Below are positions 8,027-53,975 of a stretch of DNA of 64,000 nucleotides, one piece after another. The DNA is from Candidatus Yonathbacteria bacterium. GTDB taxonomy: Bacteria > Patescibacteriota > Minisyncoccia > Phycocordibacterales > JACNGX01. Under the pieces are notes generated by a model. It did no database searches. It was given only the letters and a program-made list of their open reading frames with translations, and was not told the DNA's origin. The stretch's first letter is position 1. Each line of letters starts with the position of its first letter. The stretch is from the NCBI GenBank assembly GCA_013334825.1, contig JAAXWR010000001.1, positions 11,769-75,768 on the forward strand. Reading direction: 5' to 3'. The translations under genes and the position numbers were made by a program.

Positions 8027-8095
8027 ATATTCGTATATTCGTACACATTCGTTATTCGTAACCGTTCTTGAAACTTGAAACTTGAAACTCGTCCA
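8027..8095 (+). repeat. module A of dispersed intergenic element (ATTCGTA heptamer array + CTTGAAACT repeats)
   Basis: 'tattcgtatattcgtacacattcgttattcgtaaccgttcttgaaacttgaaacttgaaactcg'. The same module is at 9582, 10055, 24071, 29079, 30172, 32731, 34008, 34288 and 38800. Confidence 0.8.
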
Positions 8096-9584: not shown

Positions 9585-9630
9585 TGTTTACGAATAACGA
9601 ATGTTTACGAATATACGAATAATATTTCTT
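9582..9630 (-). repeat. module A, inverted copy (overlaps metG stop)
   Basis: 'gtttacgaataacgaatgtttacgaatatacgaataat' is the reverse complement of the ATTCGTA array. Confidence 0.7.
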
Positions 9631-9645
9631 AATATAAAAGTATAA

Positions 9646-10038
9646 ATGAAAAATCTTATAAAAAAAGAAATTCTCTATCCAGAGCTTAGTTATATTATTA
9701 TGGGCTGTTTATTTAATGTTCATAATGAGATTGGGTCAGGACACAAAGAGAGAATCTACGAGAGGGCGGTTGCTGAAGCTTTTATAGAGAGAGGGCTCTC
9801 TTTTAAGGAACAAGTATACGTCCCTGTTATTTTTCATGATAAGTATGTGGGTAAATATTTTCTCGATTTTCTGGTCGATGGGAAAATTGTTGTTGAATTA
9901 AAAGCGGGCGATCAATTTCTGAAGAAAGATACAGATCAGATATTGAGATATTTGCAGATACATAATATTTCATTAGGTATTCTTGCGCGTTTTACATCTC
10001 GTGGAGTAATTGCAAAAAGGATAATACACATAAAATAA
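9646..10038 (+). CDS. GxxExxY family protein (PD-(D/E)XK nuclease-like)
   Basis: 130 aa. 'SYIIMGCLFNVHNEIGSGHKERIYERAVAEAF...VELKA' fits the GxxExxY architecture, with a variant G-x-x-E motif (GHKERIY). Confidence 0.65.
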   Translation: MKNLIKKEILYPELSYIIMGCLFNVHNEIGSGHKERIYERAVAEAFIERGLSFKEQVYVPVIFHDKYVGKYFLDFLVDGKIVVELKAGDQFLKKDTDQILRYLQIHNISLGILARFTSRGVIAKRIIHIK

Positions 10039-10054
10039 TTTTTTATTTTGTAGA

Positions 10055-10101
10055 GGTAACATAGGTAATTCGTATATTCGTAAACATTCGTTATTCGTAT
10101 G
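10055..10101 (+). repeat. module A copy, supplies the tatD start codon
   Basis: 'ggtaattcgtatattcgtaaacattcgttattcgtATGaaat'. Confidence 0.7.
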
Positions 10102-15901: not shown

Positions 15902-18900
15902 ATGTATATACCACGCACACGATATATAGTAATGTTTGTAACATTTCTCATAGGAGTGAGTGCTTTTGTTGTGGTGCGTGCGGCATTTAATCCAGAGATA
16001 AATTATCAAGGGAAACTTACGAATACGAGTAACGTCGCGGTGAATAATGGAGACTATAATATACGTTTTCGTCTGTATACCGTTCCGTCGGGCGGTTCTC
16101 CACTATGGACGGAGACGCTCTGTTATTCTCCTGATGCGGGAACTACGTGTGACGGAACAGGTGTCGACAATCGTCCTGAGATTTCGAGTGGTTTATTTTC
16201 TGTACTGCTAGGTGCTGTGTCATCGCTCGCGTCTGTTAATTTTGATCAGACACTCTATTTGGGTGTTGAGATTGGAGGATCCAGCTCAACGCCGACCTGG
16301 GACGGCGAAATGACCCCGCGTAAAAAACTCGGTGCGGTCCCTGCTGCATTTGAAGCAGGGAGACTTGATGGAATTGACTCAGCATCGTTCTTGCGTTCAG
16401 ATGAGCCAGATACAATGGCAGTAACGTCTGCATCGACAGCTCTTACTATCACTCAGTCAGGAACAGGAGATATCCTAAATATCAACGACGGCGCAAGTGA
16501 AGTGTTCACCATCCTTGATGGTGGCAATGTCGGCATTGGCACCATTACCCCTGGTCAAAAACTCACCGTTGACGGCACCCTCGGTATTTTGGAAGGAGGC
16601 ACGACCCCGACGTACCACACGATATTCCAAGGGGGAGATCAGGCAGGTGATGTTACGTATACACTACCGACCGCACAAGCAGGAGGGAGCGGCTATGTGC
16701 TTTCTAATAATGGATCAGGAATTTTGTCGTGGGTTGCTGGAGGGGGTGGAGGAGGTATGGCAATCGGCGGAGCAGTGACTTCAGGGACTTTAGGTTCCAT
16801 ACTTTTTGTTGATGCATCGGGAAATCTTGCACAAGACAATACGAATTTCTTTTGGAATAACACTGATAAAAGATTGGGTATCGGGACGAATACGCCAAAC
16901 GAAGCACTGGATGTAAATGGTACGATTCAAGCAAAAAAAATCCTATTTTATGACGATACCATTACAGGCAAAACTCACAGCAACATCTCTTTTTCGGAAA
17001 CGGAAGTATCCCCAACAGTTACAGATCTTTTGCTTGATTCTGATACAGGAACTGACTTTCGGTTTATAATGGATCATGTATATGAGATAGATTTTGGCAC
17101 ACCTCCTGGAGGTATGAGCGGTTTTTCAAATGCTATAACACTTGGGACGACCGGGACTTCGAGTTTGCGCTTTAATAGCGGTCCGCAGATATACGGTGGT
17201 GTCGGGGATGCGTTGTACCTGGATAGCTATCACGGCACTCTTGTTTCTAATAACAGTGGTGATATCGTTCGTTTTGGGACCAGTAGTGCTAATACAGACA
17301 CGTATTTTTATGGAAATGTCGGTATCGGCACCGCCGTCCCCGATCGTCGTCTCGACGTCCTCGATGCCACAAACCCTCAGCTCCGTCTCACCTACACCGA
17401 CGGCTCGGTGTACACTGATTTTCAGACAACTTCTGCTGGTGATTTATATATAAATCCATCGGGTGGTAGTGTTGGTATCGGGACTGCACTCCCGACTTAT
17501 CCACTGGAAGTTAGTGGAGGAAATCTTGGAGCACAAATGAAGATAACACATTCTGGCGTTGGTTATGCCCCCGCAAGTATTTTATTGGAAGAAGAAACTG
17601 ATTTTGGAAGAGGACAAGGCATTTACCAGCATAGTGTTCCCGATGGCGACTCTTGGTTTTCTGGTGTTCCCTATGGAGCTGATGGAGATTTGTGGGGTGT
17701 CTTCTATAAAAATGATGTGGTGTGGGATCCTAGTGTAGCCTCTACCGCATATTCTGTTCTTAGAGTTGAGAAAAGCGGAAACATAGGACTTAATACTTCT
17801 GCTTATTTAAATTGGGGTGAGATTGGAACGAGCGGATATGGTCTTCGAGATAATGGAGGAGTAATGCAATATAAAAATTCTAGTGGTTCATGGACAAATC
17901 TTTCTGCCGGCGGTGGAGGCATGGCAATTGGAAGTGCTGTAACGTCAGGGACTTCTGGCTCTGTACTTTTTGTTGATGCATCGGGAAATCTTGCACAAGA
18001 CAATACGAATTTCTTTTGGAATAACACTGATAAGAGATTGGGTATCGGGACGAATACTCCTGCATATGATTTGGATGTGGCAGGAAGCGGATATTTTAGA
18101 TCAAAGAGCGGATTAAGTACTGTTACAGAAAGTTTTGAAGGGGTGACGTTTCCCCCAACTAGTTGGACAACAGGAGGTGATGCGAACTGGACAAGAACAA
18201 CAGCGGAAGCACAAGAGAGTGCGGCATCCGCAAATTCAGGGACAATAACAAACAGTCAAATTGCATGGATTGATCGTGATTATACATTTACCACAACAGG
18301 GGAGGTAAAATTCTACTGGAAAGTAAGTTCAGAGACAGCATATGATTACCTCTTGTTTTGTGCTGACAACGATTTATCATGTACAGATAGTTCGTATACG
18401 CAGCGTATTTCAGGCGAGGTTGACTGGGTTGAAGTGACATATGTTGTATCAACACCTGGTGTACATAGTTTTCGTTGGGTTTATTCAAAAGATTCTGGAG
18501 ATCCAGGAGTTTTTCCTTGGTCAGATGAAGGATGGATTGATAATGTGCGTTTTATAGAATCAACAGGAATATCTGGTGGTAATGTGTTTGCTGAAGGGTA
18601 TCTTTCCACAGGAGATAGTGGAGTGTTTATAGGATCTTCCACAAATGATCGAGGGAGTATTTTATATGATACAACGAATAATATTCTTGCATTTGATACG
18701 GATTCGGTTACAAATGCTGACGTTTCGTTCTTTTCCGATAATTTATATATTGATAAATCAACAGAATATATCGGCATTGGTGATGTGACACCCGATTCCG
18801 TTCTCGATATCCTCTCTGCCACCGCTTCCAACACCCAACTCTCCATCGGAAACACTAATGCCGGAGACTATGACCCACAAATCGGGTTCCAGCTCGCCGA

Positions 18901-21778
18901 CGGAACGACCAATATCTTCACGATGGGTATTGACGATTCCGACTCCGACAAGTTCAAGATTTCCGGTGGCTCTGCTCTCGGCACGAACGACCGCCTTGTG
19001 ATTGATTCGTCGGGGAATGTCGGACTTGGCACCGCTGGTCCCGATCGTCGTCTCGATGTCCTCGATGCCACGAACCCTCAGCTCCGTCTCACCCATACCG
19101 ACGGCTCGATGTACACTGATTTTCAGACAACATCAGAAGGAGATATTACTGTCACCCCATCGGGCGGGGATTTAACATTTATAGGAAATATTCTCCCAGG
19201 TGGTACATCGGGTGCATATAATCTTGGTTCTGATACTGCACGATGGGGCGATTTTTATCTTGACGGTGAGACAATTCATATTGGTTCATCATTAACGGAT
19301 GAAGGAATTATCTCATATACGTCTGGAAATATTCTCTCTTTTGACACTGACACAACGACAGGTGGTGACATTGCCTTTTTTACTGATGATATTTATCTTG
19401 ATAAATCAACAGGATATGTAGGTTTGAGTGATACTACACCCGATCACACTCTTGATGTCGCAGGCAATATTGGACTTAACACTTCTTCATACATCAACTT
19501 TGGTGACACTGATGGCACCGATGGTTATGGTTTTCGTGATAATGGGGGAACACTTCAGTTCAAGCACAACGGTGGATCATGGACAAATTTTGGAGCATCA
19601 TCGTCCTCGGTGACCCCAAGGGATTTTTGGTCATTCAATCATTTTTATTATAACGGTGTTAGTTCAATGGATCCGTTTTTCGGAGCGGCGATTTCCTCGG
19701 GAACGATAGGTGCTCCGACTGCCGCATCAATGGCGAGTGGTAACCATCCGGGAGCGATTCTTGTCAGCAAAGCAGCAAGTACGACAGCGAACTCGGGATA
19801 TCGTATTACTGGACTCAGTACAGCGATGGTTTTGGGAGGAGGATATCTTTTTGAGGGGGTGATAAACGTGCGCACTCCCGCAGCAGGGACAAACACTATT
19901 TATCTTGGTTTTCATGACGCGACGAGTGTGACTGCTCCGGTGGACGGTGTGTATTTTGATATTGCGGGAACGACGGTAACAGGGCGTTCACGAGGAGGAT
20001 CTGCAACTCTTGCAACAGCGAGCACATACACAGTTTCTACTGGAAACACTGATTGGTATCGCTTTAGAATTGTCATTAATACAGCGGCAACGCGTGCGGA
20101 CTTTTATATTTATGATGACGCTGGCACGCAGGTGTGGACAGATTATGTCAGCGGAAACGCGGGCGATCTTCCAACGGCGACAGCAGACTTGCTCACCGCT
20201 GGATTTCTCGGGGTGAACTCTTCAACCACGGCAACTGCCTATGAAATTGCAAATGTCGATTATATGGGAATGGGAACAGTCGCGGGATATGATGCGTTTA
20301 CAACAGGCGGTTCTGGTCTTTGGACGGTGAATGGATCGAATGTGTATTATAATGCTGGTAATGTCGGTATTGGAACAACAGCACCTTCACAGGCACTTTC
20401 TGTTTCGGGGACATTGGGTATTATTGAAACAGGAACAACACCACAGTATTACAGTATCTTTCAAGGAGGTGACCAAGCTGGCAATATTACCTATACGTTA
20501 CCGACAGCTGTTGGTGGTGCAGGACAACAACTTACCGATGCAGCAGGTAATGGCGTGCTTTCATGGGCGGCAGCTGGTTCAACTCGCAATTTAAAAGATA
20601 TTGATGGATTAATCGAAGATCCGCAAGAAGCTCTTGAGACAATTTTGGAAACAAATATTTATGCCTTTCATTATAAGGAAGGTATGGGAACAGGAGACGC
20701 GCAAACACAATATGTTGGTGTTATGGCGGATGAAGCATCATGGGCAATGCACTATGATGGAAATGTAGTAAACCCTGTGAATACATTGGGGTATATGGTC
20801 CTTGGTATGCAAGCGACAAACAAACGCATTGATGACATTATTGCTGGGTTGGCATCAGTATCGGATAGTGGAGGGAATTCTCTTTCGGATACAGGAATGG
20901 CAGTATTGTATGCGCCAATTACCGCCATGCTCTCAAATGATCCAATGAATGGTATGCGAATTGCCTCAATACTCTCTTCGTTTATTGAAGGAGGGGATGT
21001 CGGTACGTCATTTTGGAATGTAGATGCTGTTACTGGTGTTATTTCACCTCTCGGATCTCTTGATATGGATGGGAATGGTGTGTATGATGTTGCGGAAATT
21101 ATTGGTATCGATGAATCATGGAGTGTTAATCGACAAGGACTTCTTACGGTGAATGGTCTCGTCGTACGGGGAGATATTGAGGTGGGAAGTCGTGAAAAAC
21201 CTTCGGGCATTACACTCTATGATGAAGTGACAGGAGAGCCGTATTGTCTCCGTATGGTTGCGGGAGTGATAGAGTCCACGCTAGGGACATGTGAAAGTTT
21301 ACGGGCGTCTTCATCTGATGGTGGTGATATGGGGGACATCACACCTCCCACCATTGTACTTCGAGGCAATAACCCCGCACGTATTGAAATTGGTGATGAA
21401 TACGGTGATCTTGGCGCAACAGTAACAGATGACAATGATGAATATCCAACACTGGAGATATATATTGAGGGTGAAAAAGTTGATACTGTTCATATTATGG
21501 CAAGAGAAGATGCGACGTATACTATTGAGTATGTTGCCTATGATGATGTAGGAAATACCTCAACCGTAACACGTACCGTGATTGTGGGGAATGGGAGTCC
21601 AGATGCTCAAGAAGAAAGCGAAGTTGAGGATGTTCCTTTAGTCGAAATACCTCCGGTAGCAGAGCCAGACCCCGAACCGTCAGTAGAAGAAGTGATTATT
21701 GATACAGAACCAATACCAGAACCAGTCAGTGGGTCTGGAAATGTTCTCTCAGATGAGCCACAAACTCTTCATGAATAA
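15902..21778 (+). CDS. giant (1958 aa) tail-fibre-like cell-surface protein with internal intramolecular-chaperone (peptidase S74-like) domain
   Basis: N-terminal signal/TM. Repeated 'GNVGIGT..P...LDV' fibre motifs. Two jelly-roll/lectin-like inserts. 'STRNLKDIDGLIEDPQEALETILETNIYAFHYKE...YVGVMADEA' matches the phage endosialidase chaperone domain. A further about 380 aa follow it, including a DUF5011-like Ig segment 'PPTIVLRGNNPARIEIGDEYGDLGATVTDDND' and an acidic P/E-rich tail. Confidence 0.7.
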   Translation: MYIPRTRYIVMFVTFLIGVSAFVVVRAAFNPEINYQGKLTNTSNVAVNNGDYNIRFRLYTVPSGGSPLWTETLCYSPDAGTTCDGTGVDNRPEISSGLFSVLLGAVSSLASVNFDQTLYLGVEIGGSSSTPTWDGEMTPRKKLGAVPAAFEAGRLDGIDSASFLRSDEPDTMAVTSASTALTITQSGTGDILNINDGASEVFTILDGGNVGIGTITPGQKLTVDGTLGILEGGTTPTYHTIFQGGDQAGDVTYTLPTAQAGGSGYVLSNNGSGILSWVAGGGGGGMAIGGAVTSGTLGSILFVDASGNLAQDNTNFFWNNTDKRLGIGTNTPNEALDVNGTIQAKKILFYDDTITGKTHSNISFSETEVSPTVTDLLLDSDTGTDFRFIMDHVYEIDFGTPPGGMSGFSNAITLGTTGTSSLRFNSGPQIYGGVGDALYLDSYHGTLVSNNSGDIVRFGTSSANTDTYFYGNVGIGTAVPDRRLDVLDATNPQLRLTYTDGSVYTDFQTTSAGDLYINPSGGSVGIGTALPTYPLEVSGGNLGAQMKITHSGVGYAPASILLEEETDFGRGQGIYQHSVPDGDSWFSGVPYGADGDLWGVFYKNDVVWDPSVASTAYSVLRVEKSGNIGLNTSAYLNWGEIGTSGYGLRDNGGVMQYKNSSGSWTNLSAGGGGMAIGSAVTSGTSGSVLFVDASGNLAQDNTNFFWNNTDKRLGIGTNTPAYDLDVAGSGYFRSKSGLSTVTESFEGVTFPPTSWTTGGDANWTRTTAEAQESAASANSGTITNSQIAWIDRDYTFTTTGEVKFYWKVSSETAYDYLLFCADNDLSCTDSSYTQRISGEVDWVEVTYVVSTPGVHSFRWVYSKDSGDPGVFPWSDEGWIDNVRFIESTGISGGNVFAEGYLSTGDSGVFIGSSTNDRGSILYDTTNNILAFDTDSVTNADVSFFSDNLYIDKSTEYIGIGDVTPDSVLDILSATASNTQLSIGNTNAGDYDPQIGFQLADGTTNIFTMGIDDSDSDKFKISGGSALGTNDRLVIDSSGNVGLGTAGPDRRLDVLDATNPQLRLTHTDGSMYTDFQTTSEGDITVTPSGGDLTFIGNILPGGTSGAYNLGSDTARWGDFYLDGETIHIGSSLTDEGIISYTSGNILSFDTDTTTGGDIAFFTDDIYLDKSTGYVGLSDTTPDHTLDVAGNIGLNTSSYINFGDTDGTDGYGFRDNGGTLQFKHNGGSWTNFGASSSSVTPRDFWSFNHFYYNGVSSMDPFFGAAISSGTIGAPTAASMASGNHPGAILVSKAASTTANSGYRITGLSTAMVLGGGYLFEGVINVRTPAAGTNTIYLGFHDATSVTAPVDGVYFDIAGTTVTGRSRGGSATLATASTYTVSTGNTDWYRFRIVINTAATRADFYIYDDAGTQVWTDYVSGNAGDLPTATADLLTAGFLGVNSSTTATAYEIANVDYMGMGTVAGYDAFTTGGSGLWTVNGSNVYYNAGNVGIGTTAPSQALSVSGTLGIIETGTTPQYYSIFQGGDQAGNITYTLPTAVGGAGQQLTDAAGNGVLSWAAAGSTRNLKDIDGLIEDPQEALETILETNIYAFHYKEGMGTGDAQTQYVGVMADEASWAMHYDGNVVNPVNTLGYMVLGMQATNKRIDDIIAGLASVSDSGGNSLSDTGMAVLYAPITAMLSNDPMNGMRIASILSSFIEGGDVGTSFWNVDAVTGVISPLGSLDMDGNGVYDVAEIIGIDESWSVNRQGLLTVNGLVVRGDIEVGSREKPSGITLYDEVTGEPYCLRMVAGVIESTLGTCESLRASSSDGGDMGDITPPTIVLRGNNPARIEIGDEYGDLGATVTDDNDEYPTLEIYIEGEKVDTVHIMAREDATYTIEYVAYDDVGNTSTVTRTVIVGNGSPDAQEESEVEDVPLVEIPPVAEPDPEPSVEEVIIDTEPIPEPVSGSGNVLSDEPQTLHE
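16801..16893 (+). repeat. intragenic repeat R1a, near-identical to 17964..18056
   Basis: About 93 nt, identical except one base: 'actttttgttgatgcatcgggaaatcttgcacaagacaatacgaatttcttttggaataacactgataa'. Confidence 0.9.
17327..17432 (+). repeat. intragenic GC-rich repeat R2a, about 93% identical to 19028..19133
   Basis: 'ggcaccgccgtccccgatcgtcgtctcgacgtcctcgatgccacaaaccctcagctccgtctcacc...' is seen twice. Confidence 0.85.
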
Positions 21779-22501: not shown

Positions 22502-22972
22502 ATGTACATCAATAAAGTCTTTTTGTATGGAAATCTTACTCGTCAACCGGAACTACGTGTTTCGCCATCGGGTTCAAAAGTATGTTCATTTAGTATTGCG
22601 ACAAATCGTCGTTACAAAGATCAAACGGGTAACTGGAATGAAGCAAGCGAATACCATAGTTTGGTTGCCTTCGGAAGAAGTGCTGAACTCATCGCTCAAT
22701 ATCTGACTACAGGGAGCAGTGCGTTTATCGAAGGACGATTGCAGACGCGTAGTTGGGAAGGTCCTGATGGTAAAAAGAATTTTCGTACAGAAGTTGTTGT
22801 TGAACAAGTGCAATTTGGTCCTCGCCGTACGGGAGAAGGACAGCAGGGGGGTGGGTATCGTAAAGATGCTGGCTCCGCACAAAACGATAGCGGACAACCG
22901 ATGGCACACGAAGAACTTGATACTATCGAATACCCAACAGAAGATATTAATCCTGACGATATTCCATTTTAA
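22502..22972 (+). CDS. ssb: single-stranded DNA-binding protein
   Basis: 'VFLYGNLTRQPELRVSPSGSKVCSFSIATNRRYKD' is an OB fold. Gly/Gln-rich linker. Canonical acidic tail '...PDDIPF'. Confidence 0.9.
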   Translation: MYINKVFLYGNLTRQPELRVSPSGSKVCSFSIATNRRYKDQTGNWNEASEYHSLVAFGRSAELIAQYLTTGSSAFIEGRLQTRSWEGPDGKKNFRTEVVVEQVQFGPRRTGEGQQGGGYRKDAGSAQNDSGQPMAHEELDTIEYPTEDINPDDIPF

Positions 22973-22985
22973 TTAGTAAATCAGT

Positions 22986-23375
22986 ATGATAGGAAATCAG
23001 GAGATAAGTAAGAAAGATAAAGAAAAGGTGTGCTCATATCGCTCTTTGATTGTATGGCAAAAAGGTTTCGAGGTATCTTTAGTTGTGTATCGCCTGACGA
23101 AGACATTTCCTGATGACGAGCGATATGGTCTCGTATCGCAAATGAGAAGAAGTGCAGTTTCTATTCCGTCGAATATTGCAGAAGGATACGCGCGAGGATC
23201 AAAAGCATCATTTCACCAATTTCTGAGAATCGCATACGGTTCAGCTGCTGAGCTTGAGACGCAATTATTATTAGCAAAAGAATTGAAATACCATAAAGAA
23301 ACAGACATTGAAGAATTGTTGATTGAGGTTATGAAGATGATTAACGCAATTCTTTCAAAAGGAAAATATACATGA
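22986..23375 (+). CDS. four-helix-bundle protein (TIGR02436 / 23S rRNA IVS-protein family, Avd-like)
   Basis: 'SLIVWQKGFEVSLVVYRLTKTFPDDERYGLVSQMRRSAVSIPSNIAEGYARGSKASFHQFLRIAYGSAAELETQLLLAKEL' is diagnostic. Inserted between ssb and rpsR. Confidence 0.85.
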   Translation: MIGNQEISKKDKEKVCSYRSLIVWQKGFEVSLVVYRLTKTFPDDERYGLVSQMRRSAVSIPSNIAEGYARGSKASFHQFLRIAYGSAAELETQLLLAKELKYHKETDIEELLIEVMKMINAILSKGKYT

Positions 23376-23416
23376 GTTATGTTTAGAGCCCGAGATATCT
23401 TCATAGTAATCTCATC

Positions 23417-23492
23417 ATATACTAACCTCCTAATCTCCTAGTTTACTAACTTCCTAACGTACTAACCTCCTAACTTACTAATCTTCTAACTT
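23417..23492 (+). repeat. degenerate tandem repeat of a 13-mer (ACTAACCTCCTAA-like), about 6 units
   Basis: 'tactaacctcctaatctcctagtttactaacttcctaacgtactaacctcctaacttactaatcttctaacttcctatcc'. Related to the AGGAGATTA motifs flanking the other four-helix-bundle copies. Confidence 0.7.
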
Positions 23493-23499
23493 CCTATCC

Positions 23500-23697
23500 A
23501 TGCAATGCTACTTTACCGCAAATAATATTAAATACATCGATTATAAAGATGTAGAGACGCTCAAGAAATTTGTAAATCAACATGGGCGTATTCAAAATAG
23601 TCGTTATTCGGGTGTTTCGGCGAAGCATCAACGACAACTTGCAACGGCAATCAAGCGCGCTCGTTACATGGGACTTCTTGCATACGTTTCTCAATAA
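23500..23697 (+). CDS. rpsR: 30S ribosomal protein S18
   Basis: '[50 protein letters not shown]' is canonical S18. Confidence 0.9.
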
Positions 23698-23712
23698 GAT
23701 ACAAAAGAAAAC

Positions 23713-23743
23713 AAAAACACGGACAGAGAGTCCGTGTTTTTGT
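23713..23743 (+). terminator. rho-independent terminator after rpsR
   Basis: AAAAACACGGAC-AGAGAG-TCCGTGTTTTTGTTTT. Confidence 0.7.
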
Positions 23744-23905
23744 TTTATGTTGTTTCATCAGTTGTTTTTTGGAACATAACTATGTTACAAAAGAGTTGAA
23801 AAACCAATACTCAGTCTCTTTTTTCGGGCGCGGACACGCACACTTCGTGTAACGGAGACGCTGCGGGAGAACTACGAATTCAGTAAAGTCTGTTTTTTAA
23901 ATTAT

Positions 23906-24110
23906 TCCGTCTGTCACCCTCAACCCTCCCGTCCGTCATCCTAAACCCTCTCGTCTGTCATCCTGAACTTTTACCTTGTCGAAGGAAGGTGATTCAATAT
24001 CTTGCCGTTGCAAGCCATCGAAACATTAGGTTAAACCTAGCGGAATACCGCTAGGTTTAACCTAATGTTTTTATTCGTACATTTGTGCATATTCGTTATT
24101 CGTAACCGTG
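23906..24110 (+). repeat. composite intergenic element copy 1 (modules B + C + A)
   Basis: B: 'gtcatcctgaacttttaccttgtcgaaggaaggtgattca', with three 21-bp direct repeats before it. C: the palindrome 'ttaggttaaacctagcggaataccgctaggtttaacctaa'. A: the ATTCGTA array. Confidence 0.8.
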
Positions 24111-25409
24111 TTATCTCTTTGCCCACTCTTCTTCTTGTCGCACAAGTAAATGAGAAGCTTGTTTTGGGTGTGCAAGAAGTGCTTTGACGATACGTTCCAT
24201 ACGGACACCTTGTGATCCTTTGACAAAAACAGTTGCCCCGTCAGGAATAAGATTTGATAGTTGTGTTGTCGCTTCTTGTGCGTCAGCAAATATGTGCATA
24301 TGTGCATGGTCTACACCTGCTTCCTGGGCGCCTTGTGCGAACAGCTTTGCATTGTCTCCAACAAAAATAAGTATATCGGCAGAGATGGCAGCGTCTTTTC
24401 CGGCGTCTTTATGTGCGGATTCCGTCATGTCTCCGAGCTCGCGCATGTCTCCCAAGATTGCAACTTTGATACCTGCGCTTGTGATATCGCGAAGTGTAGA
24501 AAGACCTGCGGCAACGGCGAGAGGGGACGCATTGTATGTGTCATCAATAAGACAGATGTTGCGTATGCCCTCAAGAAGATGTAATCGTCCTGGGGTAGGA
24601 CTGATATGGGAGAGACGCATAGCAGCGTCTTGAGGGGAAATACCTGCGGATACCCCAGCTGCAAAGGCGGCAAGCGCGGTATATGCGTGGTGCGCGCCTA
24701 TGGTGTGCGAAAGAGTAACGGGGTACATGTCGTCTTTGGTAATGAGTGAAAAAGCAAGACCAGACGGTATATTGTTTTCATACACAATATGTATGTTTTC
24801 TGCGCATACAGTATTCTCTGGATGTGTGCCATAGAGAATGACTGTCTTGTTGGAAAGCGTTTTCGCAAGAGGGGCAATACGTGTATCATCTCCGTTTAAA
24901 ATAGCTGTTCCCTCCAAGCGTAACGCATCAAGGAGAGATGCTTTCTCATGAAGGACAGCATCAACAGAAGGAAAAAACTCAACATGTACAGGAATGTCGC
25001 CGACGCGCGTGAGTATCGCGATATCAAGAGATATCCCCGCGAGTGAACGCGCGATATCCCCCGGATGATCAGCGCCGACTTCAAGGATAAGCCATGCGGG
25101 ATAGGGGGCACGAGAAATGACACGCAAGGCGCCTCTATAGAGGGTGAGCATCCACGCACGTGGGCTATTCCATCCTGTAGGCAAATCAAGAATGGTCAAA
25201 GGAACACCAAATTCACTGTTGAAACTTTTTTTGTTTTTTCGCACCGTATACGATTCTTTCATAATGTCATACAAGGCATCTTTCACGGATGTTTTTCCTA
25301 CACTTCCTGTAACGGCGATAATACGCGGACGATGTTTTTTGATAACGAGACGCGCCTCAAATGAAAGTATACTGATCACGATTTGTTTAATGAGTGTGCG
25401 AAGAGACAT
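24111..25409 (-). CDS. murF: UDP-N-acetylmuramoyl-tripeptide--D-alanyl-D-alanine ligase
   Basis: 'IIAVTGSVGKTS', 'DDTYNASP' and 'GDMRELG' are Mur ligase motifs in the MurF arrangement. Confidence 0.8.
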   Translation of the reverse strand: MSLRTLIKQIVISILSFEARLVIKKHRPRIIAVTGSVGKTSVKDALYDIMKESYTVRKNKKSFNSEFGVPLTILDLPTGWNSPRAWMLTLYRGALRVISRAPYPAWLILEVGADHPGDIARSLAGISLDIAILTRVGDIPVHVEFFPSVDAVLHEKASLLDALRLEGTAILNGDDTRIAPLAKTLSNKTVILYGTHPENTVCAENIHIVYENNIPSGLAFSLITKDDMYPVTLSHTIGAHHAYTALAAFAAGVSAGISPQDAAMRLSHISPTPGRLHLLEGIRNICLIDDTYNASPLAVAAGLSTLRDITSAGIKVAILGDMRELGDMTESAHKDAGKDAAISADILIFVGDNAKLFAQGAQEAGVDHAHMHIFADAQEATTQLSNLIPDGATVFVKGSQGVRMERIVKALLAHPKQASHLLVRQEEEWAKR

Positions 25410-25411
25410 AA

Positions 25412-25933
25412 TTACGCGTGATGAGAATGAGTAATGGGGGAGAGTAGTGTCGCGACAATAGCAACCAAAACAAAGCGTATCGAAGAAAGAAAGAGTATGG
25501 CGTACGGTATCATGCCAATGCGAGAGTCAAGCGTGAATGAGTCGGGAAGAAAAAGAAAAATGATTGATTCAACGACAAATGAGGTGAGCGCAATAATGAT
25601 GAGTGGACGATCAAGTCCGCGAGGTAAACGAAATCGTGTTCGTGTACACGAGCACATGTTATTGCTCAAGGAGAGAAGAAGGATAAACAGTATACCAATA
25701 TGGAGTGTCTGCGCGGTCATACCAAGCATGATATATGCGATGCCCGCAGAAAATATCATACGTCCTCCCACAGGGAAACTTTTCAAGACTTCTTTGCCAA
25801 ATGTTGTAGGAAGCCATGCAAAAAACGCTTTTGGGTCATATGCGCGCTCTTTCCATACGGTAGCAAAAATGACACTTTCATACAGCGCGGAAATACCGTA
25901 AAGCATAATAATCACCAAAAGAAGCATGTCCAT
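25412..25933 (-). CDS. hypothetical polytopic membrane protein
   Basis: 173 aa with 4-5 predicted TM segments. Couples directly to the murF start. Confidence 0.4.
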   Translation of the reverse strand: MDMLLLVIIMLYGISALYESVIFATVWKERAYDPKAFFAWLPTTFGKEVLKSFPVGGRMIFSAGIAYIMLGMTAQTLHIGILFILLLSLSNNMCSCTRTRFRLPRGLDRPLIIIALTSFVVESIIFLFLPDSFTLDSRIGMIPYAILFLSSIRFVLVAIVATLLSPITHSHHA

Positions 25934-25995
25934 AGTGCCCAGTATAGCAAGTTTTTTCTCCTCAGGAAACGTAACATCTGTAATAAAAAATCGTC

Positions 25996-26083
25996 TATAC
26001 CAAGGTTAAACCTAATCTATACCAACATTAAGAGTTGGTATAAGAGTCGGCATTTTATACCAAGGTTTAACCTTGGGAGCATA
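25996..26083. repeat. REP-like palindrome pair (REP1 'TACCAAGGTTTAACCTTGG' + REP2 'ATACCAACATTAAGAGTTGGTAT')
   Basis: Seen directly. Same families as at 29004, 38689, 39468, 43677 and 44945-45172. Confidence 0.75.
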
Positions 26084-26266
26084 ATATTTCCTTGTTCCTG
26101 TCAAGTTTTGTATGATACAAATGTTTAACTTCAGTGTTTCTATTGTTTTATGAGTCCGCGTTCCATAAAAGGTTAGGTTGAAAGTAATATTTCTTTTTTG
26201 ATAGTTTGTGTTAAATGAACTATCTCACAGTGGCTGTGTGGAATTGAATTTCAAAATAGATTAAAA

Positions 26267-26290
26267 ATCAGGGGGTATACTCCCCCCTGA
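26267..26290 (-). terminator. rho-independent terminator for minus-strand gene
   Basis: TCAGGGGG-TATAC-TCCCCCCTGA, with a T-run on the minus strand (TTTTTAA). Confidence 0.6.
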
Positions 26291-26301
26291 TATGAAACGT
26301 G

Positions 26302-26688
26302 TTATTGTTGAAAAGTTTCTACAATTTTTTCGAGAAAATTACATCGGAAATCTTTGTCGATAATCGTCACTCCTCTTTCTGAGGGTGAGGGAGCGCCTGT
26401 CAAAACGATGACTGAGGTGTTTTGACACATATGTTTTACCTCAATTGCCGTCTCGAGTTCACCTCTGGTAAGAAAAATCACCCCGCTATACTGCTCGTAG
26501 TCATCCGCTGACTGAGGACGCTCGGTGATAACTGTAACAGAAAATTCATTATCAAGATGTTCTTTGATAATCTCTGCCTGCTGGTTATAACACTGAGCAT
26601 CAGAAGGGTCTCTTCTGTCCATGAATCCCCAATCACCAAAATTGCAAATGAGGATGTTGCGCTGTACAGGTTTGTCTGCGTTTTCCAT
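26302..26688 (-). CDS. hypothetical protein (alternating hydrophobic strands and helices, suggestive of a flavodoxin-like fold)
   Basis: 128 aa. No motif confidently recognised. Confidence 0.35.
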   Translation of the reverse strand: MENADKPVQRNILICNFGDWGFMDRRDPSDAQCYNQQAEIIKEHLDNEFSVTVITERPQSADDYEQYSGVIFLTRGELETAIEVKHMCQNTSVIVLTGAPSPSERGVTIIDKDFRCNFLEKIVETFQQ

Positions 26689-26807
26689 AACGTCCTTTTC
26701 CTTTGTTTAATTTTTGATATTTTTGACGAAAAAACTTTATCATATAAAATACATCCCTGTCTGTCTTTTGTCAAGCACTCCGTCCGTGATATAAACTAAA
26801 AACTCAC

Positions 26808-27386
26808 CTACGCTCGTTCCACGTAACTCTTGGTCGTCGTATTGATGCGAATAACGTCGCCTTGTGCGATAAACATCGGTACGTTGATTGTAGCACCTGT
26901 CTCAACAGTTACTTCTTGCGTTGCGTTTTGCGCAGTGTTCCCACGCACCGCAGGCGTTGCTTCTGTTACTTTCAGGTCCACCTTGATTGGGGGATTGATA
27001 CCAATAATGCTTGCATCATCATCGCGACCAAACAACAGCGCTTCAAGTTCGCTGTTTTCTTTGACGAAGAGTAGTTTATCGGCAACGGTTTCAGAGGGAA
27101 GGGTAAAACGGTTTTTCGCGTCATCCTTTTTGTGGAACCAATATTCACCTTTACGCGGATCTTTGTAGAGATACACAATAGTTCCTTTTTCGATAATTGC
27201 TTCATCAAATGAATCGGACTGGTGAAATGTCTTATCCACTGTCTTACCCGAAATCATATTGCGCACCTTTGTTTGATTGGTCGCTTTTTGACGATTCTTC
27301 TTGGCGGTTTGGGAAAAAACCACTTCATAAGGCTGCCCGTCCATGACGAAGTAGGTGCCCACGGTGAGTTCATTGTAGTCTAACAT
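26808..27386 (-). CDS. efp: elongation factor P
   Basis: 'GTYFVMDGQPYEVV...KTVDKTF' and the three-domain length are typical of EF-P. Confidence 0.85.
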   Translation of the reverse strand: MLDYNELTVGTYFVMDGQPYEVVFSQTAKKNRQKATNQTKVRNMISGKTVDKTFHQSDSFDEAIIEKGTIVYLYKDPRKGEYWFHKKDDAKNRFTLPSETVADKLLFVKENSELEALLFGRDDDASIIGINPPIKVDLKVTEATPAVRGNTAQNATQEVTVETGATINVPMFIAQGDVIRINTTTKSYVERA

Positions 27387-27490
27387 TGTACAATAAAAAG
27401 ATTATGAATAAAGAAATGATTTAAAGAGAATTATACTCGCTTTGTAAGAGGAGATTAAAAATTAGGAGATTAAAAAAGCGAAAAACACCC

Positions 27491-27856
27491 TCAATGGTCT
27501 GAATATAACATAGTATTTAACATTTTCATAACTTCCTGAAGAAGGGTATCGGTTTCTTGATAAGCAGACAAAGGATAATCAAATATTTCCTTAGCGAGTG
27601 CGATTTGTGTTTCAGGTTCTGCACCAGAGGCATAAGCGATACGAAGGAAGTGATGAAATTCTTTTTTTGAGCCCCGAGCATATCCCTCTGCTATATTTGA
27701 AGGAATAGAGACAGACGAACGACGCATTTGGCTTGTGAGACCGAATCTTTCATCTGGAGGAAAAGACTGTGACAATTTGTATATTGATACGCTGAGTCGA
27801 AAACCTTTTTTCCAAGCGGTGATGTTTTGATAGGAACCTTTTATTGTGTCACTCAT
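27491..27856 (-). CDS. four-helix-bundle protein (TIGR02436 family), copy 2
   Basis: 'ITAWKKGFRLSVSIYKLSQSFPPDERFGLTSQMRRSSVSIPSNIAEGYARGSKKEFHHFLRIAYASGAE'. Flanked by AGGAGATTA motifs at 27440-27470 and 27862-27890. Confidence 0.85.
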   Translation of the reverse strand: MSDTIKGSYQNITAWKKGFRLSVSIYKLSQSFPPDERFGLTSQMRRSSVSIPSNIAEGYARGSKKEFHHFLRIAYASGAEPETQIALAKEIFDYPLSAYQETDTLLQEVMKMLNTMLYSDH

Positions 27857-27888
27857 AGAAAGGATATTAATCTCCTAATCTCCTTTAA

Positions 27889-28932
27889 CTATTTCTCTTT
27901 CTGCTTCTCATCAAGCGCTTTTCCAATTGCTTTTGCAATCTCATTACCAATTTTTTTGTTTTCTTTCAAAAACTCACGCGCCGCGTCATATCCGCGACCA
28001 AGTTTTTCTTCACCATACGCATATGATGAACCAGATTTATCGACGATACCAAATTGCTCTCCCAACATGAGCATCTCGCCTTCACGAGAAATCCCTTCGC
28101 CATAAACAATGTCAAACTCCGTCTGACGGAACGGGGCTGCGACTTTATTTTTGACAATCTTTACACGTGTCCGTGACCCAATCACTTCATCACCCTTTTT
28201 TACTTGCGCGATGCGACGGATATCCACGCGTACCGAAGTATAGAATTTGAGTGCTTTGCCACCTGGTGTTGTCTCAGGATTGCCAAACATCACACCGATT
28301 TGCATGCGGATTTGATTGATGAAGATGACGACCGTTTTTGTCTTGTCTACGATGGCGGTCAATTTGCGAAGCGCTTGACTCATGAGACGAGCTTGTTTGC
28401 CGACATGTTGTGCGCCCATGTCTCCTTCGATTTCATCACGTGGGGTGAGTGCCGCGACAGAGTCAATGACAATCACATCCATTTTACCTGAACGTACCAA
28501 ACTCTCGGCAATTTCAAGCGCTTGTTCACCGTTGTCTGGTTGGGCGATGAGAAGCTCATTTGTTTTGACTCCCAATTTGCGTGCGTAATCAGGGTCCATG
28601 GCATGTTCCGCATCAATAAATGCACAGAGGCCACCTTTCTTTTGTGCTTCGGCGACAACATGAAGTGCGAGCGTTGTTTTTCCAGATGATTCTGGACCAA
28701 AAATTTCAATGATACGACCACGAGGGAATCCACCCACACCGAGCGCATGGTCAATACCGATGGATCCAGAAGGAATAACGTCCACGTCCACGCGTGGTTT
28801 GTCACCGAGTTTCATGATGGCACCTTCGCCAAATTTCGTCTGAATCGCTTTGATCGTATCAGCAATATCGGTGTTGCCGTCACGTGAGGGGATCTCTGGA
28901 CGGGCTACTTTTGCTTTTTTGGGTGCAGGCAT
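27889..28932 (-). CDS. recA: recombinase RecA
   Basis: '[36 protein letters not shown]' with Walker A, L1/L2 loops and C-terminal tail. Confidence 0.95.
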
Positions 28933-29003
28933 AGTATTGAGAAAATAAATGAGTATCTGTGTATTATATCACGAGATATCCGAATGCGAATACAGCACAA
29001 GTC

Positions 29004-29190
29004 ATACCAGGGTTTAACCTTGGGAGCATATGCTATACCACCACTAAGAGTTGGTATAAAACGTAGGGTGCTGGATATACGTACGTATTCGTTATTCGTA
29101 AGCATTCTTGAAACTCGTCCGCCCCGTCCTTTCTTAAGAAAGGACGGGGCGGACGCGCGTGCTCCGCGTAGCGGAAACATCGCGGGAAAC
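29004..29190 (+). repeat. composite intergenic element copy 2 (REP1 + REP2 + module A + 40-bp GC palindrome + hairpin)
   Basis: Includes the perfect palindrome CGTCCGCCCCGTCCTTTCTT|AAGAAAGGACGGGGCGGACG at 29116..29155. A second copy of that palindrome is at 34875..34912. Confidence 0.8.
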
Positions 29191-29202
29191 TTGTCTTCTG
29201 CG

Positions 29203-29694
29203 TCAGTTCCGCGTTTCTTCTGTGTCGTTTTCTATTTCTTGCGTCTCAACATCCGAATCGTCGCCCAACGTCTCTTCCGTGTCAGTTTGGTGACTTTCAG
29301 CTCTGTCTTCTGTCTCTCGCAGCTCGACACTCGACACTCGCGATTCATCCATTTTTCCTATTATCTCTCGTGTCTCCGCGCATTCATTACCAAAACGGTC
29401 TCGCGCGTAGAGTGTAATGATATTAAGCCCAGGGGAGAGGATGTATGTCTCGTTAAAGTGTCCCTGCTCATCAATGAAAATCGGCCGACCGTTCATAGCG
29501 ATAAACGTCGCATTTGTCGCGACACCAAATATATGAATCATTGGTTCCTCAAACGTCGCCCCATTTCCGGGGCCTTCGAGCGCGATACGTGGACCAAGCA
29601 TGAGTGCCCATGCCTGATGTACGACATACACAACTAAGAGAATGCCCAAAAGCACCCACCCCACGCGTATAAATATGTCTTTTAAGGTTACCAT
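29203..29694 (-). CDS. hypothetical membrane-anchored protein with acidic C-terminus
   Basis: N-terminal TM helix, then a beta-rich domain, then a D/E/T-rich tail. Confidence 0.45.
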   Translation of the reverse strand: MVTLKDIFIRVGWVLLGILLVVYVVHQAWALMLGPRIALEGPGNGATFEEPMIHIFGVATNATFIAMNGRPIFIDEQGHFNETYILSPGLNIITLYARDRFGNECAETREIIGKMDESRVSSVELRETEDRAESHQTDTEETLGDDSDVETQEIENDTEETRN

Positions 29695-29741
29695 GAAGAA
29701 AGTGTTCAGTTATCAGTTTCAAGCATTGCCTATTCGCTATT

Positions 29742-30126
29742 TTAATGAGAAGAAAGAGATTGAATAAGTGCATTTAACATTTTTTCAATCTCTGTTATTT
29801 TTGAAATAATTTGCTCATAGTCACTATCTTTTATAAAAGATAATTCTTTTGCGAGGATAATTTCAGTTTTCAATTCAGCAGCTGAGCCATATGCGATACG
29901 AAGAAACTGTGTAAAGTCTTTTTTTTGTACCGCGACACTGTCCCTCGGCAATATTGGAAGAAATTGAAATTGCTGCCCGTTTTATTTGAGAGATCAGTCC
30001 GAATCTTTCATCAAGAGGAAAATATTTTGTTACTGCGTAAACTTCTTTTGCGAGCTGAATGCCTTTTTGCCATACCAAGAGATCTTGATATGAGATACTG
30101 CGTTTATTGTTTAGATACTCAGGCAT
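29742..30126 (-). pseudogene. four-helix-bundle protein (TIGR02436 family), copy 3, frameshifted
   Basis: Two overlapping ORFs in different frames (29875..30126 and 29742..29951) together cover one family member: 'LLVWQKGIQLAKEVYAVTKYFPLDERFGLISQIKRAAISISSNIAEGQCRG' plus 'FTQFLRIAYGSAAELKTEIILAKEL'. Confidence 0.65.
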
Positions 30127-30171: not shown

Positions 30172-30234
30172 GGGGCAAGCGTACGTATTCGTTATTCGTA
30201 AGCATTCTTGAAACTGACAACTTGAAACTCGTTC
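30172..30234 (+). repeat. module A copy at the 3' end of ftsK
   Basis: 'ggggcaagcgtacgtattcgttattcgtaagcattcttgaaactgacaacttgaaactcg'. Confidence 0.8.
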
Positions 30235-32599: not shown

Positions 32600-32785
32600 T
32601 TCGCCCGTCATCCCGAGCTCCACGCCTTGCCGAAGCCTTGGCGAAGGAAGGTAATGTAAGATTTAGAGTTGCAAGTCGCCAAAACGTTAGGTTAAACCTA
32701 GCGGCGCTCCGCTAGGTTTAACCTAACGTTTTTATTCGTATATTCGTTCGTAAGCATTCTTGAAACTGACAACTTGAAACTCATC
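32600..32785 (+). repeat. composite intergenic element copy 3 (B + C + A)
   Basis: 'cgtcatcccgagctccacgccttgccgaagccttggcgaaggaagg', then 'ttaggttaaacctagcggcgctccgctaggtttaacctaa', then the ATTCGTA array. Confidence 0.8.
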
Positions 32786-32860
32786 CACACTCATTCCCCT
32801 TGCCCCTCTCGATTCACTGTGTTCCACTCCATGCAATGCTCTTGAATCAATTGAGAACGC

Positions 32861-33894: not shown

Positions 33895-34380
33895 ACTCGT
33901 TCGTCATCCATTCCAGTCTGTCATCCCGGGCTCCGTGCCTTGCCGAAGCCTTGGCGAAGGAAGGTGACACGGGATCCAGAGTCGTCAGTTTCATCCATCT
34001 TAGTTTAGTTGTATTCGTACATTCGTACGTATTCGTTATTCGTAACCATTCTTGAAACTCGTCATGGAACTCGTTTCATTGACTTTATACCATAAAAAAA
34101 CTATAATAAAAGGAGATATTTTGTTGTTTAAAAACCACATCATTTTCGTGTCATAACAAACTCGTTTCATCATTCGTCGAGTCGTCCTTGAGAGTCTGTC
34201 GTTCTGAACTTTTTACCTTCCCGAAGCCTTGGCGAGGGAAGGTGATTCAGGATCCAGAGTCATCAGTTTCATCTATCGTAGTCTAGTCGTATTCGTACAT
34301 TCGTACGTATTCGTTATTCGTAAGCATTCTTGAAACTTGAAACTTGAAACTGACAACTGACAACTCGTCTTCATTGCACA
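33895..34380 (+). repeat. tandem array: B-A, then B-A composite elements (copies 4 and 5)
   Basis: B copies at about 33895-33990 and 34190-34285. A copies at 34008-34075 and 34288-34375 (the latter with CTTGAAACT x3 and GACAACT x2). Confidence 0.8.
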
Positions 34381-38639: not shown

Positions 38640-38895
38640 CCAATCTGCCATACCAAAGCCCACACCAACTCTTCCAACAGTCTGTTTCCCGTACCAAGGT
38701 TAAACCTTGGTAGCGTCGTCCGTCATCCTGAAAAAAGGAGTGTCATCCTGAACTCGATTCAGGATCCACGAAGTCGTCAGTTTCATCTATCGTAGTCTAG
38801 TCGTATTCGTACATTCCCCAGCACCACGTAGGGCGCGGGGCAGGCGTACGTATTCGTTATTCGTTTCCCGTATCAAGGTTAAACTTTGGTAAAAA
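38640..38895 (+). repeat. composite element copy 7 (REP2-like + REP1 + B + A + REP1-like)
   Basis: 'ccgtaccaaggttaaaccttggtagcg' at 38689, B module from 38715, A module from 38800. Confidence 0.75.
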
Positions 38896-44950: not shown

Positions 44951-45175
44951 GTACCAAGGTTTTCCGTACCAAGGTTAAACCTTGGTAGCGCCTCACCCAT
45001 CTTTGTATGTCAAGTATGTTTACGCAGGTTAAACCTTGGTATAAATACCAAGGTTTAACCTGCGTAAACTATCGCGAATCATTTTCGTCTTCTGTACCAA
45101 GGTTAAACCTCGGTGACGGATTTTTGTCTGTCAACATGTTGAATGTTTATACCAAGGTTTAACCTTGGTATAATG
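44945..45175. repeat. cluster of 5 REP1 palindromes immediately upstream of the RAYT gene
   Basis: Copies at about 44950, 44965, 45018-45071 (nested 52-bp perfect palindrome GTTTACGCAGGTTAAACCTTGGTATAAATACCAAGGTTTAACCTGCGTAAAC), 45093 and 45147. The last carries a TATAAT -10 eight bp before the ATG. Confidence 0.85.

Positions 45176-53941: not shown

Positions 53942-53975
<34 letters not shown>

Follow-up and report, generated by a model that had tools for sequence, protein, structure and literature searches.

A 64,000-nt segment of a Candidatus Yonathbacteria genome (assembly GCA_013334825.1, contig JAAXWR010000001.1; hereafter the window) raises the question of why a small gene of the S23p family stands between ssb and rpsR, within the rpsF-ssb-rpsR operon, and why two further genes of this family lie among other housekeeping genes only a few kilobases away. 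The segment belongs to the Patescibacteria (candidate phyla radiation, CPR) and has a GC content of 44%. A first-pass annotation, made from the letters alone, had described the three genes as Avd-like, had noted AGGAGATTA-type motifs on their flanks, and had suggested a small mobile cassette composed of gene and motif. We found that short tandem units, in arrays inverted relative to each other, lie on both sides of each copy, and that the feature common to the copies is this architecture and not a motif (Table 1). We are highly confident of the cassette architecture and of the association of such arrays with the gene family as a whole. Our overall reading, that the genes are the cargo of intervening-sequence-type cassettes in housekeeping operons and that the arrays are paired, processed or recognised, is one that we favour with moderate confidence.

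Profile searches placed all three genes in the PF05635/TIGR02436 family (S23p, the 23S rRNA intervening sequence (IVS) protein, a four-helix bundle; cut-offs 33.8 and 24 bits, respectively), as the first-pass annotation had it. Copy 1 matched PF05635 at E 1.7e-38 (131.5 bits) and TIGR02436 at 126.1 bits, and copy 2 matched them at E 6e-34 (116.9 bits) and 113.7 bits. Copy 3 is a pseudogene, frameshifted as first described, whose N-terminal half (29875-30126, model positions 1-57) and C-terminal half (29742-29951, model positions 54-106) fall into open reading frames (ORFs) of 83 and 69 aa and score 74.4 and 52.6 bits against the family models. The break consists of a single extra A in a run of eight (T-run at 29919-29926 on the + strand), without which a full-length protein of 127 aa is read; a recent mutation, a site prone to slippage or a sequencing error could account for the frameshift. 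No fourth copy was detected in the window by tblastn. Copy 1 does split the ribosomal-protein cluster, with ssb (22502-22972) and, upstream of it, rpsF on one side and rpsR (23500-23697) on the other, and each of the three copies is co-oriented with both of its flanking genes. At the sequence level, residues 18-112 of copy 1 match the protein of PDB entry 2GSC (XCC0516; E 8.6e-25); 2GSC and 2RLD contain five chains each, and the S23p-type four-helix bundle is described as a homopentamer (PMC4990558). The paralogues are 46-63% identical to each other, with copies 1 and 2 mutually closest (63%). The exact copy 2 sequence is also present in assembly GCA_013335985.1, where the called genes around it follow the order of the window.

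The arrays of copies 1 and 2 are built of 8-nt units of the TTAGGAGA type, while those of copy 3 consist of 7-nt units of the AGTTTCA type; the AGGAGATTA-type motifs first reported for all copies are therefore a property of copies 1 and 2, and copy 3 has different heptamers. The motif AGGAGATTA occurs seven times, confined to four sites (0.49 expected from shuffles), and the octamer pattern matches 14 times (0.18 expected). Around copy 1, the 5' array extends over both the end of the ssb stop codon and the copy 1 start codon, forms an inverted repeat of 25 nt (84%) with 23474-23498, and is kept in orthologues. The 3' array is complementary to the 5' array and proved to be a run of about ten octamers, not the six 13-mers first described at 23417-23492; it stops exactly at the rpsR ATG, with no Shine-Dalgarno sequence, and its unit number, read from the flank sequences of orthologues, varies (approximately 6 in L001, 7 in L008, and 9-10 in L005 and L006). 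The arrays of copy 2 are mutually complementary (13/13 and 14-nt arms), and the stem that closes its predicted RNA fold is formed by the 3' array. Those of copy 3 form an inverted repeat of 26 nt (81%), in which the 5' array belongs to a composite repeat that also holds ACGAATA units, and the 3' array stops 7 nt short of the ATG of the next gene (29694). Both rpsR and this 163-aa gene begin 0-7 nt after a pyrimidine-rich array, with no Shine-Dalgarno sequence. Comparison of the flanks accordingly revealed an architecture common to the copies and no common boundary sequence.

We further ranked the 53 genes of the window by the complementarity of their flanks, and found a GxxExxY gene (described below) in first place, with copy 1 in second place and copy 2 in fourth. 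Copy 3 tied for tenth place and was listed twelfth, because its 5' array mostly falls outside the span scanned. Predicted folds (minimum free energy (MFE) and centroid) of the copy 1, copy 2 and GxxExxY cassettes are all closed by a stem between the two arrays. For the window copies, duplex z-scores were weak (about -1), since shuffled periodic, strand-skewed arrays retain pairing potential, and periodicity and pattern statistics were used in their place. Copies 1 and 2 are the closest paralogues and have the same octamer type in common, which implies that the whole cassette, gene and arrays together, was duplicated as a unit into a second operon.

Table 1. Positions of the S23p-family genes, arrays and related repeats in the window
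Feature	Position	Strand	Description
Copy 1	22986-23375	+	Intact, 129 aa; between ssb and rpsR
Copy 1 5' array	22973-23012	+	Five octamers TTAGTAAA TCAGTATG ATAGGAAA TCAGGAGA TAAGTAAG
Copy 1 3' array	23420-23499	+	About 10 tandem octamers TNCTAANN; Tandem Repeats Finder (TRF) period 8, 9.4 copies
Copy 2	27491-27856	-	Intact, 121 aa; between recA and efp
Copy 2 5' array	27865-27886	-	(GGAGATTA)x2 and a degenerate unit, directly 3' of the recA stop
Copy 2 3' array	27446-27473	-	Gene sense TAATCTCC TAATTTTT AATCTCC
Copy 3	29742-30126	-	Pseudogene; between ftsK and a 163-aa gene
Copy 3 5' array	30204-30229	-	Gene sense AGTTTCA AGTTGTC AGTTTCA AG; TRF period 7
Copy 3 3' array	29701-29726	-	Gene sense TGAAACT GATAACT GAACACT (TAACTGA type)
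GxxExxY cassette (fourth)	9589-10099	+	GxxExxY / PD-(D/E)XK gene 9646-10038, between metG and tatD
Solo array	1428-1454	+	AGGAGATTAAAAATTAGGAGATTAAA; after a class I (Ile-type) tRNA synthetase gene
Composite repeat sites	8026-8092, 24085-24105, 29083-29118, 30180-30232	+	
Composite repeat sites	32741-32787, 34011-34060, 34288-34365, 38851-38865	+	

The same layout was found well beyond this genome. We examined 80 loci from a genome scan, taken as the best matches to copy 1 (43-75% identity) and drawn from Patescibacteria, Bacteroidota, Acidobacteriota, Planctomycetota, Firmicutes, Proteobacteria and other phyla. A flank duplex z below -2 was obtained for 47% of the family genes and for 12% of control genes (p = 7e-13). 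Arrays of period 7 (counted at four or more units) reached 3.25 per kb in the family flanks against 0.11 per kb elsewhere, a 30-fold difference, whereas arrays of period 5 or 6 were absent from the flanks and numbered 14 elsewhere; a single flank array had period 9. Both flanks carried arrays in 44 of 77 genes (period 7 in 42, period 8 in two), at 4-10 units per arm, and the consensus units of the two arms were 78% complementary, as in (GAGTGAT)n/(ATCACTC)n, (AGATGCC)n/(CTGGCAT)n and (TAGCGTC)n/(CTAGACG)n. The upstream consensus unit contained AG in 38 of 44 cases (about 36% expected by chance) and, when aligned on it, read A-G-T-G-R-N-T (core nAGTGrn, with the complement downstream). The Nostoc plasmids show this layout as well, for example (TCAGGAG)x5-ATG...TCCTGAC. 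Proteins encoded in 8-mer cassettes show only a weak tendency to group as a clade (mean identity 50.4% vs 47.5%). Stop codons were present in 33 of the 44 upstream units against about 50% expected, an enrichment so modest that we rejected three-frame stops as the reason for the arrays.

The setting of these genes is equally regular. Co-orientation with both neighbours was observed for 78% of family genes and 53% of controls (p = 2e-4), gaps to the neighbours were about 50 nt, and the median distance from array end to ATG was 10 nt, both for the gene itself and for the gene that follows. Downstream neighbours were housekeeping genes, including sdhB (seven times), type IV secretion system pilin/PrgI (five times), atpA, groEL, gatB, aspS, ftsW and others. 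These downstream neighbours matched 73 families, and the 25 commonest of these included neither a reverse transcriptase nor a transposase. A 23S sequence accompanied the gene in none of 154 related loci, and the family name is therefore misleading for most members.

A fourth cassette in the window has the same plan and a different cargo. Its gene encodes a GxxExxY protein (TIGR04256, 104 bits; PF13366, E 7e-30), and its arms (9589-9631 and 10057-10099; 43 nt, 88%), built of ACGAATA/TATTCGT units, make up the longest inverted repeat of the window and a predicted 32-bp closing stem (z = -7.5). Five of eight further GxxExxY loci elsewhere also have inverted arrays, of period 8-11, and one more has a short inverted repeat; a scan of viral contigs for GxxExxY returned one locus. 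The period is thus specific to the cargo, at 7 nt for the four-helix bundle (8 nt in some Patescibacteria) and 8-11 nt for GxxExxY.

Arrays also occur in the window with no gene beside them. The site after the Ile-type tRNA synthetase gene, correctly recognised at first as carrying the motif only, is identical over 27 of 27 nt to 27447-27473 within the 3' array of copy 2, and no four-helix-bundle gene is adjacent to it. ORF-less arrays of ATTCGTTATTCGT (9 sites), TTCTTGAAACT (about 9 sites; 13 matches if one mismatch is allowed) and GAAACTGACAACT (9 sites) are frequently joined into a composite element. In this composite ORF-less repeat, which is dispersed in the window, a TATTCGT array is followed by a CTTGAAA array and then by a CTGACAA array. 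Each dispersed array type has a cognate cassette: GGAGATTA that of copies 1 and 2, AGTTTCA/TGAAACT that of copy 3, and ACGAATA that of GxxExxY. The gene with its bracketing arrays is a real unit, as the idea of a cassette of gene and motif had supposed, and one duplicated between copies 1 and 2. The idea was wrong about a common motif. Arrays are also abundant without any gene, and no transposition mechanism is evident.

Comparison with relatives provided a history for these insertions. The gene lies between ssb and rpsR in all five loci with at least 74% SSB identity from a metagenome scan with SSB (65 loci), as well as in seven further contigs fetched through copy 1 orthologues, and in no scan locus with SSB identity of 67% or less, about 40 of which reach rpsR and have it directly after ssb. 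Related genomes with an uninterrupted ssb-rpsR order, a point raised by the first-pass annotation, therefore exist. All carriers of copy 1 have the arrays, with approximately 6-10 units. A diverged relative (L155; GCA_964621395.1; RecA 88% and SSB 78% identity) has a family member at all three positions in synteny. The synteny of the three insertions, together with a presence of copy 1 that tracks SSB identity, indicates that all three are old and vertically inherited, with no recent transposition in this lineage. We saw no target-site duplication, recent identical copy or presence/absence polymorphism among the relatives compared, and so the mobility proposed at first does not extend to the recent past. 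An insertion sequence or miniature inverted-repeat transposable element (MITE) was also rejected as an explanation, because no transposase or recombinase lies nearby, the copies are 46-63% identical, and all of them are syntenic in the diverged relative.

The evolution of the cargo and that of the arrays can be followed separately at these sites. In L155, the copy 2 orthologue occupies the same position at 68% identity, and its 5' and 3' arrays are conserved despite a diverged surrounding spacer. The arrays at the copy 1 and copy 3 sites differ from those of the window (ATAGCTT/CTATAAG and AAGAGTT/AACTCTT) and are complementary within the genome, so that the array arms co-vary at orthologous sites; the proteins at these two sites are not reciprocal best matches. 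Either compensatory change or replacement of the cassette would produce this pattern. At the L155 copy 3 site, the gene caller gave just 79 aa, but the ORF is intact and stays open across the four-helix-bundle domain as far as a TAG. A dN/dS of 0.08-0.12 against orthologues, with 10 synonymous and 3 non-synonymous changes in the closest pair, indicates that the copy 1 protein is under purifying selection. Decay of the gene is nonetheless recurrent (copy 3; L006/L007, TAG at codon 100; L012, TGA at an invariant Trp), and the arrays stay well formed.

Arrays of unrelated sequence, with a gene or without one, occupy the ssb-rpsR spacer in several other lineages. Among 35 distinct uninterrupted ssb-rpsR spacers of other Patescibacteria, about 7 hold 7-nt arrays with no ORF, and two of the seven or so are hairpins of an upstream-type and a downstream-type array, that is, empty cassettes. 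Such hairpins, in which an upstream-type array is directly followed by its complement, were observed in operon spacers of Planctomycetota and Patescibacteria (L094, 5694-5748; the ssb-rpsR spacers of L022 and L035). The ssb-rpsR spacer of L155 (11700-12360) contains an insert of about 270 nt within its 5' heptamer array; the insert has its own terminal inverted repeats AACCAGTCTCACTGAAAA, and some 25 nt of the array are found in copy on either side of it. The heptamer arrays may themselves be targets of insertion.

Among known systems, the closest parallel is the 23S rRNA IVS with an S23p ORF (Coxiella burnetii, Leptospira, Xanthomonas, Brucella), which carries a gene of the same PF05635 family. 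In the Coxiella IVS, the ORF lies inside a 28-bp terminal stem that is cut by RNase III, and two to three tandem heptamers GACAGAT precede the ATG; RNase III excision has been shown for the IVSs of Coxiella, Leptospira and Salmonella (PMC4990558). The likeness extends to terminal inverted repeats that form a long stem around the ORF, seen here in both MFE and centroid folds, to tandem heptamers directly before the ATG whose number varies between strains, to transcription that depends on the host gene, and to an ORF that decays while the RNA element persists (PMC4990558). Unlike these IVSs, which lie in helix 25 or 45, the window copies lie in spacers of protein-coding operons (rpsF-ssb-rpsR, recA-efp, and ftsK and the gene next to it), and the protein is under purifying selection. 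The 23S rRNA gene of the window, for its part, has group I introns and ORF-less hairpins and no S23p gene. This gene (53136-57267) is 4.1 kb long and contains two group I introns (55967-56238 and 56671-56929) and two ORF-less, IVS-like hairpins with the common stem CCGAGCACCAC (53402-53726 and 54027-54131), the first with a 26/26-bp stem around a 273-nt loop. The rRNA genes are unlinked, with 23S-5S followed by a 16S start at 63758.

Heptamer repeats form the second parallel. The short tandemly repeated repetitive (STRR) heptamers of cyanobacteria were reportedly treated by Vioque in 1997. Like the STRR heptamers (PMC2670836), the TAACTGA repeats of Beggiatoaceae, cyanobacteria and Bacteroidetes (PMC4679880) and the GGGAATC repeats of Xanthomonas (PMC4692102), the arrays described here are 7-nt intergenic arrays inside operons that often end a few nucleotides before a start lacking a Shine-Dalgarno sequence and hold stops in three frames. 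Some convergent pairs of these repeats form hairpins, as in the 70-75 convergent pairs of the Xanthomonas GGGAATC repeats (PMC4692102), and their patchy distribution suggests horizontal spread (PMC2670836, PMC4679880, PMC4692102). Unlike in those reports, the arrays here are 30-fold denser beside one small gene family, and a subset in Patescibacteria has 8-nt units. The reports named above tie the repeats to no gene family; the binding protein of the TAACTGA repeats is not known (PMC4679880), and neither PMC4679880 nor PMC4692102 mentions S23p or four-helix-bundle genes. Within the searchable literature, as distinct from subscription-only papers and curated family notes, the link between gene and heptamer appears only in the description of the Coxiella IVS. 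MITEs, repetitive extragenic palindromic (REP) repeats and integron cassettes are also small promoter-less units with hairpin-capable ends whose ORF-less derivatives outnumber the ORF-bearing ones. In contrast to them, the present ends are 7-8-nt tandem arrays that differ between copies, with no associated transposase or integrase and no target-site duplication seen.

These parallels suggest how such an insertion might be tolerated. A small ORF, promoter-less and placed between two inverted 7-8-nt arrays, would be inserted co-directionally into a short operon spacer and transcribed by read-through from the host operon, given that there is no room for a promoter and that the ORF is co-oriented with its host. 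The two arrays would pair into a long stem around the ORF, and RNase III would cut this stem, as it does in 23S intervening sequences with the same gene, and free the cassette RNA. The flanking cistrons, including rpsR, would be left as separate mRNAs with very short leaders, which would make the insertion tolerable and account for the absent Shine-Dalgarno sequences. We regard RNase III-type processing, proposed by analogy, as plausible but somewhat doubtful. Each subunit of the encoded pentamer would bind one array unit, both beside its own gene and at solo arrays of the cognate type. Recognition of this kind is inferred because a fixed period of 7 and a conserved AGTG core are more than a plain stem requires, and the encoded pentameric ring would be the most economical candidate for the array binder; we put it forward tentatively, as a little less probable than the processing step. 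Spread would be historical, through cassette duplication, horizontal transfer and repeated colonisation of the same spacers.

Several observations weigh against our reading. Mismatches in the arms comprise 54 G:U-compatible and 72 A:C pairs, so that there is no G:U excess; complementarity is thus not visibly kept by selection on a sense-strand RNA helix, and the RNase III model rests on analogy and not on such covariation. Whole-cassette folds are no better than those of shuffled sequences for copy 1 (z = +0.3) and copy 2 (z = -1.0), and among the three cassettes folded the value is significant for GxxExxY alone. The solo arrays follow the + strand (leading by GC skew) and not the direction of genes, which is unexpected of an element that acts purely at the RNA level. 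Copy 3, the copy with the most widely dispersed array type, is a pseudogene here. To our knowledge, no catalytic or nucleic-acid-binding activity has been demonstrated for S23p-type proteins. The Coxiella S23p protein is probably not made (PMC4990558). The 80 loci, moreover, were all chosen as top matches to copy 1, and remote members of the family may differ.

Part of this evidence would also fit a host function, with the arrays serving as translation or stability elements and the pentamer as a domesticated trans-acting RNA-binding regulator of the TRAP or CsrA kind that binds them, also at its own gene, the whole being a regulon and not selfish. The 3' arrays stop 0-10 nt before the next ATG with no Shine-Dalgarno sequence, in a geometry like that of the TAACTGA repeats, which end about 1 nt before starts at which Shine-Dalgarno sequences are rare and which hold three-frame stops (PMC4679880); the 3' array of copy 3 itself contains (TAACTGA)x2. 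ORF-less arrays precede rpsR in other lineages, unit types are common to many solo arrays and cassettes, purifying selection on copy 1 is strong, and a role in stability or translational coupling has been suggested for STRR hairpins within operons (PMC2670836). Against a regulator stand the frequent pseudogenes (copy 3, L006/L007 and L012) and the number of paralogues: this small genome has three to four of them, diverged and each with its own array type. Protein identities of 50-59% across phyla suggest horizontal spread, the gene is found inside 23S rRNA too (PMC4990558), and solo arrays are oriented by DNA strand and not by transcription; we therefore consider a regulon unlikely, though we keep it as a rival. 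That same strand bias, relative to replication, would suit an element acting on DNA, whose arrays would be terminal inverted repeats with multiple protein-binding sites on double-stranded or hairpin DNA, comparable to multi-site transposon ends or to heptad operators that small oligomeric proteins bind cooperatively, and whose cassette would be copied or moved by the cargo protein or by a host recombinase, with GxxExxY serving as a homing-type PD-(D/E)XK nuclease. Such an element would agree with a DNA-like mismatch spectrum in the arms that lacks a G:U excess, with the cargo-specific period, with the duplication between copies 1 and 2, with the nuclease fold of one cargo family, and with the sites of copies 1 and 3, where different arrays and proteins that are not reciprocal best matches are compatible with replacement. 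We judge it rather improbable, as close relatives show no recent copies, target-site duplications or presence/absence polymorphism, no catalytic motif is known in the four-helix-bundle protein, recombinases are missing from the neighbourhood, and co-orientation with the operon points to dependence on host transcription.

Two further explanations are very improbable in our judgement. The genes might be accessory Avd proteins of diversity-generating retroelements (DGRs), or remnants of these, as the initial Avd-like label had it. Avd binds nucleic acid and a partner enzyme. Its pentamer-forming four-helix-bundle fold is homologous, being common to Avd and 2GSC (PMC10053308), and the genes have weak matches to the bAvd model PF22296 and to DivGenRetAVD, consistent with remote homology. 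Scores of 18-19.5 bits for PF22296 (cut-off 40) and 18.8 bits for NF033474 (cut-off 80) nevertheless fall far below the thresholds, so that the S23p/TIGR02436 assignment stands and the Avd label does not. As first reported, a reverse transcriptase is missing, both from the called genes around the three copies and from the larger window ORFs scanned, and none appeared among the 25 commonest downstream families of the 80 loci; unlike DGRs, the locus has no template/variable repeats. The four-helix-bundle gene had no phage matches, and PADLOC returned no defence-system match. The only long direct repeats nearby, 115-155 nt in length and 71-89% identical, lie inside the gene for a 1958-aa surface protein (15902-21778) directly upstream of rpsF, and they show no adenine-specific differences, so they are not DGR template/variable repeats. 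Equally improbable is the notion that the flanking motifs are Shine-Dalgarno-like or chance low-complexity sequence. AGGAG is indeed the octamer core in copies 1 and 2; the motif and pattern counts given above far exceed expectation and are confined to few sites, however, and do not describe ribosome-binding-site-like sequences at many genes, so that the cassette idea survives this objection, as it does the other one named in the first-pass annotation, that the copies might have no boundaries in common. In addition, the downstream arrays are the reverse complement, antisense to AGGAG, the conserved upstream array of copy 2 in L155 stops 28 nt before the start codon, and copy 3 and most family members have units without AGGAG.

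The window holds other repeats and one unusual gene. Perfect palindromes centred on AGGTTWAACCT, with arms of 23-25 nt, occur in intergenic regions at 24021-24070, 32681-32732 and 44967-45170 and at 11 more sites, with a five-fold cluster near 45 kb, and have no relation to the heptamer arrays. Between genes at 23907-23968 lies a tandem repeat of 22 nt, CCGTCTGTCATCCTAAACCCTC, in 2.8 copies, and an element GCCGAAGCCTTGGCGAAGGAAGGTGA is repeated at five intergenic sites (32629, 33942, 34220, 34805 and 39575). An ORF of 144 aa (6158-6592) matches the DnaG primase model, which has 414 positions, over roughly the first 100 alone (113 bits, cut-off 284) and may be a split or truncated primase gene.

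The S23p ORFs of 23S IVSs, the heptamer repeats, and the protein families named "four helix bundle" and "GxxExxY" have been three separate puzzles of unknown function, and our comparison shows that they are physically linked by a common polar architecture across phyla. Cassettes of this kind sit stably within essential operons (ribosomal protein, recA, sdh, atp). Their proteins are testable candidates for the repeat-binding factor, and the cassettes themselves are a possible bacterial analogue of insertions tolerated at the RNA level in mRNAs. For annotation, they account for "interrupted" conserved operons in CPR genomes and call for caution in labelling such genes as DGR Avd. A broader proposal, which we offer as speculative and on balance unlikely, is that S23p-type pentamers and GxxExxY proteins are the protein partners of bacterial heptamer arrays (STRR, TAACTGA, GGGAATC), and that together they make up a widespread class of elements, each an array and its cognate small protein, that would colonise the spacers of strongly expressed operons and stable-RNA helices. 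If true, these elements would be cut out or insulated as RNA, and the ORF-less arrays left behind would be open to co-option by the host for translation control. Such a scheme would bring 23S intervening sequences, heptamer repeats and two large protein families of unknown function under one heading.

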